Shown one piece after another: positions 39,418 through 39,726 of a stretch of DNA of 64,000 bases. The notes beneath the pieces were generated by a model. It made no database searches. It saw nothing but the letters and a program-made list of their open reading frames with translations, and was not told the DNA's origin. Origin of the DNA: a virus (lineage: Duplodnaviria; Caudoviricetes); the IMG/VR virus record IMGVR_UViG_3300035698_027145, positions 828 through 64,827 of that record, one strand, 5' to 3'. Both the position numbers and the translations under genes were made by a program. Each line of letters begins with the position of its first letter. The first letter of the stretch is position 1.

Positions 39418-39726
39418 ATGAAAAAGCTTAAGAAGGCATTTGCTATTTTTGACGATAATGCTGTCTTAGAAACTCACCCTAAAGATATGCTTAATTTTGT
39501 TGATGAGGCGTTTAGGGTTGTTGAGGGAGAAGGCCGTTTGGTTAAGAGGATAATTATGTCGAAGGAAGTATGGAGGCATTTTAGGAGAGGTTTTGGAGCA
39601 GATCTTTTGATAGAAATTGCTGGTCGTAAACATATATGGAAAGCCGATATCGAGCTTGTTTCTAATTGCCCTAAGATTATATTTTTATCGGGAGGCTATG
39701 AAAAGATAGCAGAAGAATCCTTTTAA
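39418..39726 (+). CDS. Stand-alone paralog of the MCP axial (A) domain
   Basis: DEAFRVVE...KRII...RRGFGADL...HIWKADI aligns with MCP NEAFKQIE...AKIV...RTFGKDF...HLWTADI. Confidence 0.7.
   Translation: MKKLKKAFAIFDDNAVLETHPKDMLNFVDEAFRVVEGEGRLVKRIIMSKEVWRHFRRGFGADLLIEIAGRKHIWKADIELVSNCPKIIFLSGGYEKIAEESF

Follow-up and report, generated by a model that had tools for sequence, protein, structure and literature searches.

A small gene in an accessory island of a phage G relative very probably encodes a stand-alone major capsid protein A-domain

We analysed a 64,000-nucleotide stretch of viral DNA (positions 828 to 64,827 of the IMG/VR record IMGVR_UViG_3300035698_027145; hereafter the window) and, within it, a small open reading frame (ORF) whose product resembles a single domain of the major capsid protein (MCP). 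The window covers nearly the whole of the 64,827-bp record, for which CheckV gives a completeness of 14%, and its source is an uncultured jumbo phage, kin of Bacillus phage G. Our principal finding is that this ORF is very probably a real gene, kept under selection, for a stand-alone copy of the axial domain (A-domain) of an HK97-fold MCP of the phage G type. We term it the mini-gene and its product the mini-protein. The original prediction, made from the sequence alone, had located the ORF correctly; reading of the frame confirmed an ATG at 39418 and a stop codon at 39724-39726.

The window MCP is an HK97-fold protein of the phage G gp27 type. It matched PHROG 2522 ('major head protein') at E 5.2e-66, was 55.4% identical to phage G gp27 across 96% of its length and matched the solved gp27 chain (PDB 6wkk_A) at E 1.1e-95. 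The MCP is abundant and highly conserved in metagenomes (946 proteins at E ≤1e-5 among 2,917 candidates); the 120 relatives listed were 79-96% identical, and MCPs across the clade are 72-98% identical to that of the window. Against three close relatives (L009, L011 and L012), the ratio of nonsynonymous to synonymous substitution rates (dN/dS) was ~0.03. This constraint across diverged phages is unusually strong for a capsid protein. In the same three comparisons the protein was 94-97% identical and the DNA just 74-79%.

Pairwise comparison of the mini-protein with the MCP gave a weak likeness. BLASTP aligned residues 14-82 with MCP residues 139-223 at 22 of 86 positions identical (E 1e-4, as a single comparison), and against all window ORFs the MCP was the best non-self match (E 0.015). 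The motifs AF..IE, V.[KR]I, FG.D and [IL]W.AD[IV] are present in the mini-protein and aligned with the MCP, in agreement with the shared motifs named in the original prediction. A single-sequence phmmer comparison of the mini-protein with the MCP was not significant (E 0.27-0.48), scans of Pfam and PHROGs assigned the mini-protein to no family, and tblastn against 50,697 phage records returned one chance-level match, to an RNA ligase (E 0.5). Profile methods lifted the likeness above chance.

A word-indexed search of 5.8 billion proteins yielded one homologue, P0001 (108 aa, 62% identical), which is encoded on the 2,303-bp metagenome contig L088. An exhaustive profile search of 1.84 billion cluster representatives recovered P0001 and P0122 (106 aa, E 3.4e-4) only, and no MCP, at E ≤0.001. 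The family therefore has three members, 102-108 aa long, whose domain boundaries coincide, and P0122 keeps both length and boundaries despite an identity of 26%. All three retain the fold-defining motifs. They also share derived traits that are absent from MCPs, namely a loop 8-13 residues shorter and an IIFL strand, which identify them as one family rather than three independent truncations.

When a hidden Markov model (HMM) of the three sequences was run against the window ORFs, the MCP scored E 2.6e-5 and the next ORF 0.026. The latter (13016-13441) was rejected as a relative, its hhalign probability being 0.6%. Of the 19,750 fragments obtained by six-frame translation of 80 related loci, those that matched at E ≤1 were the MCP frames of all 80 loci alone, always in the same MCP region (best E 1.4e-5). 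In 10 whole phage records, the MCP frame was the sole match in six, three gave none, and one contained a dubious non-MCP match (E 0.043). The top match of the profile among all PDB sequences was phage G gp27 (6wkk_A, residues 158-223), at an E of 0.087 that is not significant alone.

Alignment of the three mini-proteins with 22 MCPs by hhalign gave a probability of 89.8% (E 1.8e-6) and paired mini-protein residues 23-82 with MCP residues 157-223. Each member taken singly found the same MCP stretch, with probabilities of 44%, 73% and 63%, while the best of the 75 control ORFs of 70-200 aa from the window reached 1.8%. Ranked against 900 shuffled sequences, P0122 and P0001 came first and second; one shuffle stood above the window's own mini-protein. 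Alignment to the mini-protein is confined to MCP residues ~139-241, and the MCP homology stops at ~aa 241. Given this range and the length of 102 aa, the mini-protein is without the N-arm, E-loop and P-domain, as had been predicted.

Structure prediction points to the same domain. An AlphaFold2 model of the mini-protein, built from the three-row alignment, had a mean predicted local distance difference test score (pLDDT) of 75.5 and a predicted template modelling score of 0.70. The predicted order of elements is strand, short helix, long helix, strand, helix, three-stranded meander, strand and helix. A structure search independent of Foldseek, over 48,161 PDB representatives, listed 50 rows, of which 49 were capsid, prohead or encapsulin proteins matched over A-domain ranges. 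These included lambda gpE 153-284 with the highest score (Z 6.3, root-mean-square deviation (rmsd) 4.1, 94 residues) and HK97 251-337 (Z 4.9). The remaining row was 2pk8_A (PF0899, a 94-aa stand-alone A-domain; Z 5.8, rmsd 3.9, 76 residues). In a second structure search, 47 of the 50 listed rows were capsid-type, the exceptions being 2pk8, TubZ and CagT. Structural Z values of up to 6.3 are in the middling range, and the fold argument rests on the make-up of the lists and not on single scores. A separate, lower-confidence ESM Atlas model matched the capsid families PF25209, PF05065 and SU10_MCP, with template modelling scores, normalised by query, of 0.60-0.68.

Foldseek comparison of the model with the PDB and BFVD returned nothing at E ≤0.001, phage G Gp27 appearing in BFVD only at rank 31 (E 0.84). 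The 6wkk structure was not among the listed structural rows, so that the comparison is to HK97 A-domains at large. An AlphaFold2 model of the MCP itself, built from 21 close sequences, had a pLDDT of 46.8 and was unusable for mapping of secondary structure or surfaces. A comparison of folds had been proposed beforehand, with failure to superpose on the A-domain as the outcome that would count against the assignment; the predicted fold appears to match HK97 A-domains among the listed neighbours. Chance similarity to the MCP was rejected on the profile and fold results, and the original identification of the ORF as a stand-alone A-domain homologue is upheld by the hhalign probability, the HMM and the fold lists alike.

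Separately, the best BFVD rows were small uncharacterised phage proteins of 66-153 aa; an example is one of 146 aa from Pseudomonas phage PaBG (E 0.013). A viral cluster of 142 aa in the ESM Atlas also resembles the model. Judging by these predicted structures, there may be other stand-alone A-domain-like proteins in phages.

Selection was assessed by comparing the mini-gene with the P0001 gene on L088. Over 100 gap-free codons the two differ at 79 nucleotides and 38 amino acids, a nucleotide divergence of 26% without any insertion or deletion. By the Nei-Gojobori method dS was 0.70 and dN 0.25, giving a dN/dS of 0.36, or 0.25 for codons 41-92. Neutral simulations under the observed substitution spectrum produced 49.3 ± 3.2 amino-acid differences against the 38 seen (P = 1.5e-4), and the frame stayed free of stops in 8.9% of trials. 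The original prediction had held that a neutrally evolving ORF would tell against it; what was found instead, from one sequence pair, is that the mini-gene is kept under purifying selection. At 0.36 against ~0.03, it is constrained ~10 times less than its parent.

Relatives were surveyed over 80 MCP regions (±10 kb where the contig permits) and 10 whole records, including phage G and three genomes rated 100% complete. No stand-alone homologue was found in any of the 80 regions or the 10 whole records. Pattern scans of viral contigs (A1 or P0122) and of genome contigs likewise found no relatives, and a pattern scan of metagenomes found at least one locus, L088. In the closest relatives (MCP 94-97% identical), the flanks of the interval between the MCP and tail-fibre genes are conserved, including an Acb1-like 2H phosphoesterase (PF13563, 9.1e-9; PF23474, 2.2e-6), and the contents differ, comprising endonucleases, MNWYK-headed helix-turn-helix (HTH) proteins, a methyltransferase fusion and assorted small genes. 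These variable contents, together with the absence from relatives, mark the mini-gene as a rare cassette in a hyperplastic island. The window and L088 have no neighbouring gene in common: the gene upstream of the mini-gene encodes a multi-HTH protein in the window and is an unrelated small ORF in L088.

Two further observations concern the island. The MNWYK N-terminal leader is common to unrelated window proteins at 36556, 37227, 37825, 41368 and 41905 (multi-HTH proteins, the Acb1-like 2H phosphoesterase and a small protein), occurs also in L009 and L011, and is kept in the relatives' versions. The 119-aa protein adjoining the mini-gene (40033-40392) has two apparent paralogues, identified by eye, in the L011 island (13374-13733 and 15907-16248).

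An association with homing endonucleases, which the original prediction had missed, points to how the gene arose. A free-standing LAGLIDADG endonuclease gene directly follows the MCP gene, and its last ~38 nt reappear at the mini-gene junctions. By blastn, L088 445-482 matched window 36502-36539 at 86.8% over 38 nt (E 1.6e-6), and L088 457-496 matched window 39394-39433 at 80% over 40 nt (E 8e-4). In L088 and the window alike, this endonuclease-tail element immediately precedes the mini-gene, and it carries the ribosome-binding site and the start of the next gene. P0001 moreover ends in an 11-residue tail fused in frame, 10 of the 11 residues being those of the endonuclease C-terminus. A third copy of the tail in L088 precedes a 62-codon ORF, which is a decayed piece of MCP. 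This 3' fragment (L088 835-1053) corresponds to MCP aa 242-276 (tblastn E 3.6e-7) and contains an in-frame stop and a gap of 34 residues. It is situated downstream of the mini-gene homologue, at a distance of 370 nt, and is absent from the window. The order in L088 is therefore mini-gene (MCP ~139-241), endonuclease tail, two small ORFs and MCP aa 242-276 fragment; no N-terminal MCP piece was found. Since the mini-gene homology stops at ~aa 241 and the fragment starts at 242, the two pieces follow one another as they would in an MCP split at this codon.

The likely origin of the mini-gene, judged from these sequences, is a copy of the MCP gene broken at homing-endonuclease junctions. While the remaining pieces decayed, the A-domain piece would have survived as a gene translated on its own, its identity falling to ~26%. 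One observation is not simply accommodated by this origin: identity to the MCP is ~70% for the L088 3' fragment and ~30% for the mini-gene. Either the pieces differ in age and the breakpoint is recurrent, or the A-domain piece has evolved much faster. Acquisition of a cellular DUF1884 gene was rejected as a source, the sequence signal being specific to phage-G-type MCPs. The ~35-nt endonuclease-tail element may act as a cassette boundary for recombination.

Beyond the mini-gene, the last ~11 LAGLIDADG codons (ending ..GELY; window 36497-36541) are duplicated onto unrelated small ORFs in L012 (13392-13739) and L008 (3020-3154). In L072 (8677-10780), L083 and L084 (8739-10771), a ~1.2-kb insert, probably an intron or similar mobile element, splits the MCP gene after codon 33; the L072 insert, which alone was inspected, carries a LAGLIDADG-like ORF of 306 aa.

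The same junctions raise the possibility that the mini-gene is a by-product of endonuclease traffic, that is, an MCP-copy fragment lodged at cassette junctions, translated via the tail's ribosome-binding site and of little or no use to the phage. Several observations would be expected of such debris: sequence from the endonuclease 3' end flanks the gene in L088 and lies ahead of it in the window, the same tail is fused to unrelated small ORFs in L012 and L008, a decayed MCP fragment adjoins the homologue in L088, and the gene is missing from the MCP flanks of all 80 relatives and from all 10 whole records. It is harder to reconcile with the departure from neutrality (dN/dS 0.36, P = 1.5e-4), with a stop-free probability under neutrality of 0.089, or with the lack of indels over 100 codons at 26% nucleotide divergence. 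Furthermore, P0122 has the same length and boundaries at 26% identity, and the fold-defining motifs persist in all three members. We regard a by-product as somewhat unlikely.

The mini-gene lies 3.8 kb downstream of the MCP, in the variable island, and not in the head-gene block beside the decoration and protease/scaffold genes. It follows a terminator-like hairpin, for which folding gave -10.1 kcal/mol at a z of only -1.47 (16 of 200 shuffles folded equally well) and which a consensus terminator scan did not list. Near-identical copies of the motif GATATATAGGTATGA stand ahead of the next small ORF (39733) and of ORF 52438, and a relaxed form of the pattern had just two matches in 1.34 Mb of relatives' loci. 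A window-wide search for the motif GATATATAGRTATGA with up to two mismatches gave four matches against 1.25 expected, an enrichment that is not significant (2 of 100 shuffles reached four). The earlier claim that the gene sits outside the late operon behind a different type of promoter thus stands in its first part: the gene is not part of the head operon, and it is preceded by a terminator-like hairpin and by a motif that two other small genes have as well. As to the promoter type, this motif is a candidate. A search for sequencing runs containing the window listed six DNA runs labelled salt lake metagenome (≤0.45 of sampled words) and no RNA run. Mapping of reads to the mini-gene gave short, low-depth contigs that were identical over the ORF, with no new alleles among them.

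Table 1. Positions of the mini-gene, its flanking signals and related features in the window.
Feature	Position	Strand	Basis or remark
Mini-gene (stand-alone homologue of the MCP axial/A-domain)	39418..39726	+	ORF, 102 aa
Shine-Dalgarno AGGAG	39403..39407	+	10 nt ahead of the mini-gene ATG; read from the sequence
Junction element like the 3' end of the LAGLIDADG gene (GAAGAATT..AAGTCAGGAGA..TAATG)	39390..39417	+	blastn and alignment
Promoter-like motif GATATATAGGTATGA	39372..39386	+	Putative; recurs before 39807 and before 52438
Terminator-like hairpin with U7	39309..39337	+	Closes the upstream multi-HTH gene (ends 39300)
Remnant GCAGAAGAAT of the endonuclease-tail element at the mini-gene 3' end	39709..39718	+	Alignment; 10 nt
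MCP, parent family of the mini-gene	34756..35628	+	290 aa; PHROG 2522
Free-standing LAGLIDADG homing endonuclease directly after the MCP	35774..36538	+	PF03161, E 6.4e-14
Candidate second, far more diverged copy	52438..52812	+	Motifs and setting; unproven member

The mini-protein appears to keep the core of the A-domain without the elements for lattice contacts beyond the capsomer centre, and would be unable to polymerise. A non-polymerising A-domain fold would most likely act as a molecular mimic of the MCP A-domain, occupying a partner whose usual target is the capsomer-forming face of free MCP. Most plausibly, this partner would be a host immune sensor that recognises the MCP A-domain, the sensing of which would be blunted. 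Receptors that read the MCP A-domain are now known (PMC13581612), and CapRelSJ46 contacts an A-domain loop of the MCP (PMC9712102). Additionally, rarity, faster evolution, island context and own expression signals give the mini-gene a likeness to accessory counter-defence genes, and the island also harbours the Acb1-like gene. We therefore place titration of an A-domain-binding partner, most likely a host sensor, first among the possible functions, as a tentative best guess that is less likely than not to be correct. The narrower decoy version, close to what had originally been proposed, seems doubtful. In that version a protein born from an endonuclease-broken MCP copy and made before the late genes would fill the A-domain pocket of Avs7/8/10-, Dsr1- or CapRel-like receptors without the activating change, leaving the later MCP unsensed.

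Several points weigh against titration of a sensor. Binding of an A-domain mimic might activate a sensor instead of blocking it, and the mimic is only ~26% identical to the MCP. The family is extremely rare (two proteins, neither an MCP, in the 1.84 billion representatives), which is odd for a generally useful counter-defence. The dN/dS comes from one sequence pair, the structural Z values are middling and Foldseek found no match at its threshold. Finally, the endonuclease junctions and the decayed neighbouring fragment fit a mobile-element by-product equally well.

The homology of the mini-protein to the domain that forms the capsomer centre might instead indicate a capsid-directed protein, which would bind the MCP or capsomers by A-domain-like contacts and either modulate assembly of the phage's own head or poison that of co-infecting relatives. 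The homing endonucleases of the island do imply frequent co-infection with relatives. Yet relatives with 90-98% identical MCPs build heads without the mini-protein, which is thus not needed for assembly, and the phage's own MCP, being nearly identical, would hardly escape a poison; the success of these relatives argues against an own-assembly role and a selective poison alike. The gene also lies outside the head block, behind its own terminator and motif. We consider a capsid-directed role unlikely. The dominant-negative action on competitors contained in the original prediction is likewise unlikely, because the MCPs of relatives are 72-98% identical to the phage's own. Complex prediction with the MCP and the mini-protein, run without controls, gave no answer (score 0.00) and provides no evidence either way.

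A further comparison is with the Family 4 'A-domain encapsulins' (PF08967/DUF1884; PF0899, PDB 2PK8). As described by Andreas & Giessen 2021 (PMC8346489), these are proteins of ~100 aa that consist of the HK97 A-domain only and have no known function. They are cellular, occurring in hyperthermophilic archaea, Rhodothermus and Rubricoccus, usually downstream of an enzyme gene; the enzymes of such two-gene operons are given there as hydrogenase, OsmC, GAPDH and DeoC, and complexes with the partner enzymes are proposed. The mini-protein is similarly a stand-alone HK97 A-domain fold of ~100 aa, with 2pk8_A as a middling structural match. Unlike the Family 4 proteins it is phage-encoded, derived from the MCP of its own lineage and unrelated to them in sequence, PF08967 and all other Pfam families giving no match to any of the three members even at E ≤10. 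Nor is there an enzyme gene upstream: the window has the multi-HTH gene in that place, and L088 the small unrelated ORF.

By analogy, the mini-protein could be an exapted scaffold that binds or stabilises another protein, such as the product of a neighbouring gene, in a role unrelated to capsid sensing. The match to 2pk8 ties with the best capsid matches, and the proposed enzyme complexes (PMC8346489) give a precedent of sorts. The missing PF08967 signal, the specificity of the sequence signal for phage-G-type MCPs and the want of a shared neighbour between the window and L088 make this quite improbable. The existence of Family 4 nevertheless means that the statement that no mini-MCPs had been described was too strong (PMC8346489). 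Within the open-access papers searched, no description of a phage-encoded stand-alone A-domain was found.

The window contains a candidate for a second copy, ORF 52438-52812, which was the second-best window ORF against both the MCP and the mini-protein profiles. It shares LWTAD, IIF and the upstream motif with the mini-gene, and directly follows another LAGLIDADG gene. By hhalign it reached a probability of 1.8% when compared with the MCP family and 5.9% with the mini family, and its HMM E was 0.053. The homologue search found no homologues for it, and its Atlas model (pLDDT 0.38) gave no capsid match. Because of these weak statistics, the lack of homologues and the lack of a capsid fold match, we do not count it as a proven member.

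Elsewhere in the window, a 2,269-aa protein is encoded between the portal and the MCP (27256-34065), its sole match being a short, protease-like one at the N-terminus. The portal itself (21109-24474) is 1,121 aa long, and its extra C-terminal regions match unrelated PHROGs.

Set beside known systems, the mini-protein is closest to the A-domain of phage G gp27 (6WKK; PHROG 2522), with a profile link over MCP 157-223 and the shared motifs AF..IE, FG.D and LWTAD. Its predicted order of strand, helix, strand, helix, hairpin and strand is that of HK97 A-domains. It differs from the gp27 type in being about one-third of an MCP, in its ~26% identity, in a loop 8-13 residues shorter and in being a separate gene outside the head operon. 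Another duplicated capsid gene with a specialised role is that for T4 gp24, which has the complete fold and is built into the shell; the mini-protein, in contrast, is a single domain.

The mini-gene also recalls phage genes split by insertion of homing endonucleases, of which a review gives Aeh1 nrdA/mobE and T4 genes 39/60 with mobA as examples (PMC2988022). In both cases a coding region lies in separately translated pieces, and in L088, though not elsewhere, the A-domain piece, the endonuclease tail and the MCP piece from aa 242 are collinear. The known pieces reassemble the parent enzyme in the examples given there, whereas here an intact MCP lies elsewhere, the other MCP pieces that would belong with the mini-gene have decayed or are missing, and the piece that survives is far removed in sequence from its parent.

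Should the mini-protein prove to function as a mimic, it would become the first stand-alone capsid A-domain encoded by a phage to have a role, and could serve as a ready probe for receptors that read the MCP A-domain (PMC13581612). Whatever its function, the mini-gene suggests a route of gene birth in which a structural gene breaks up at homing-endonuclease junctions and a single piece the size of a domain is retained and remodelled, at a dN/dS of 0.36 against ~0.03 for a parent MCP under extreme constraint. It would also provide a viral counterpart to the unexplained Family 4 A-domain encapsulins.

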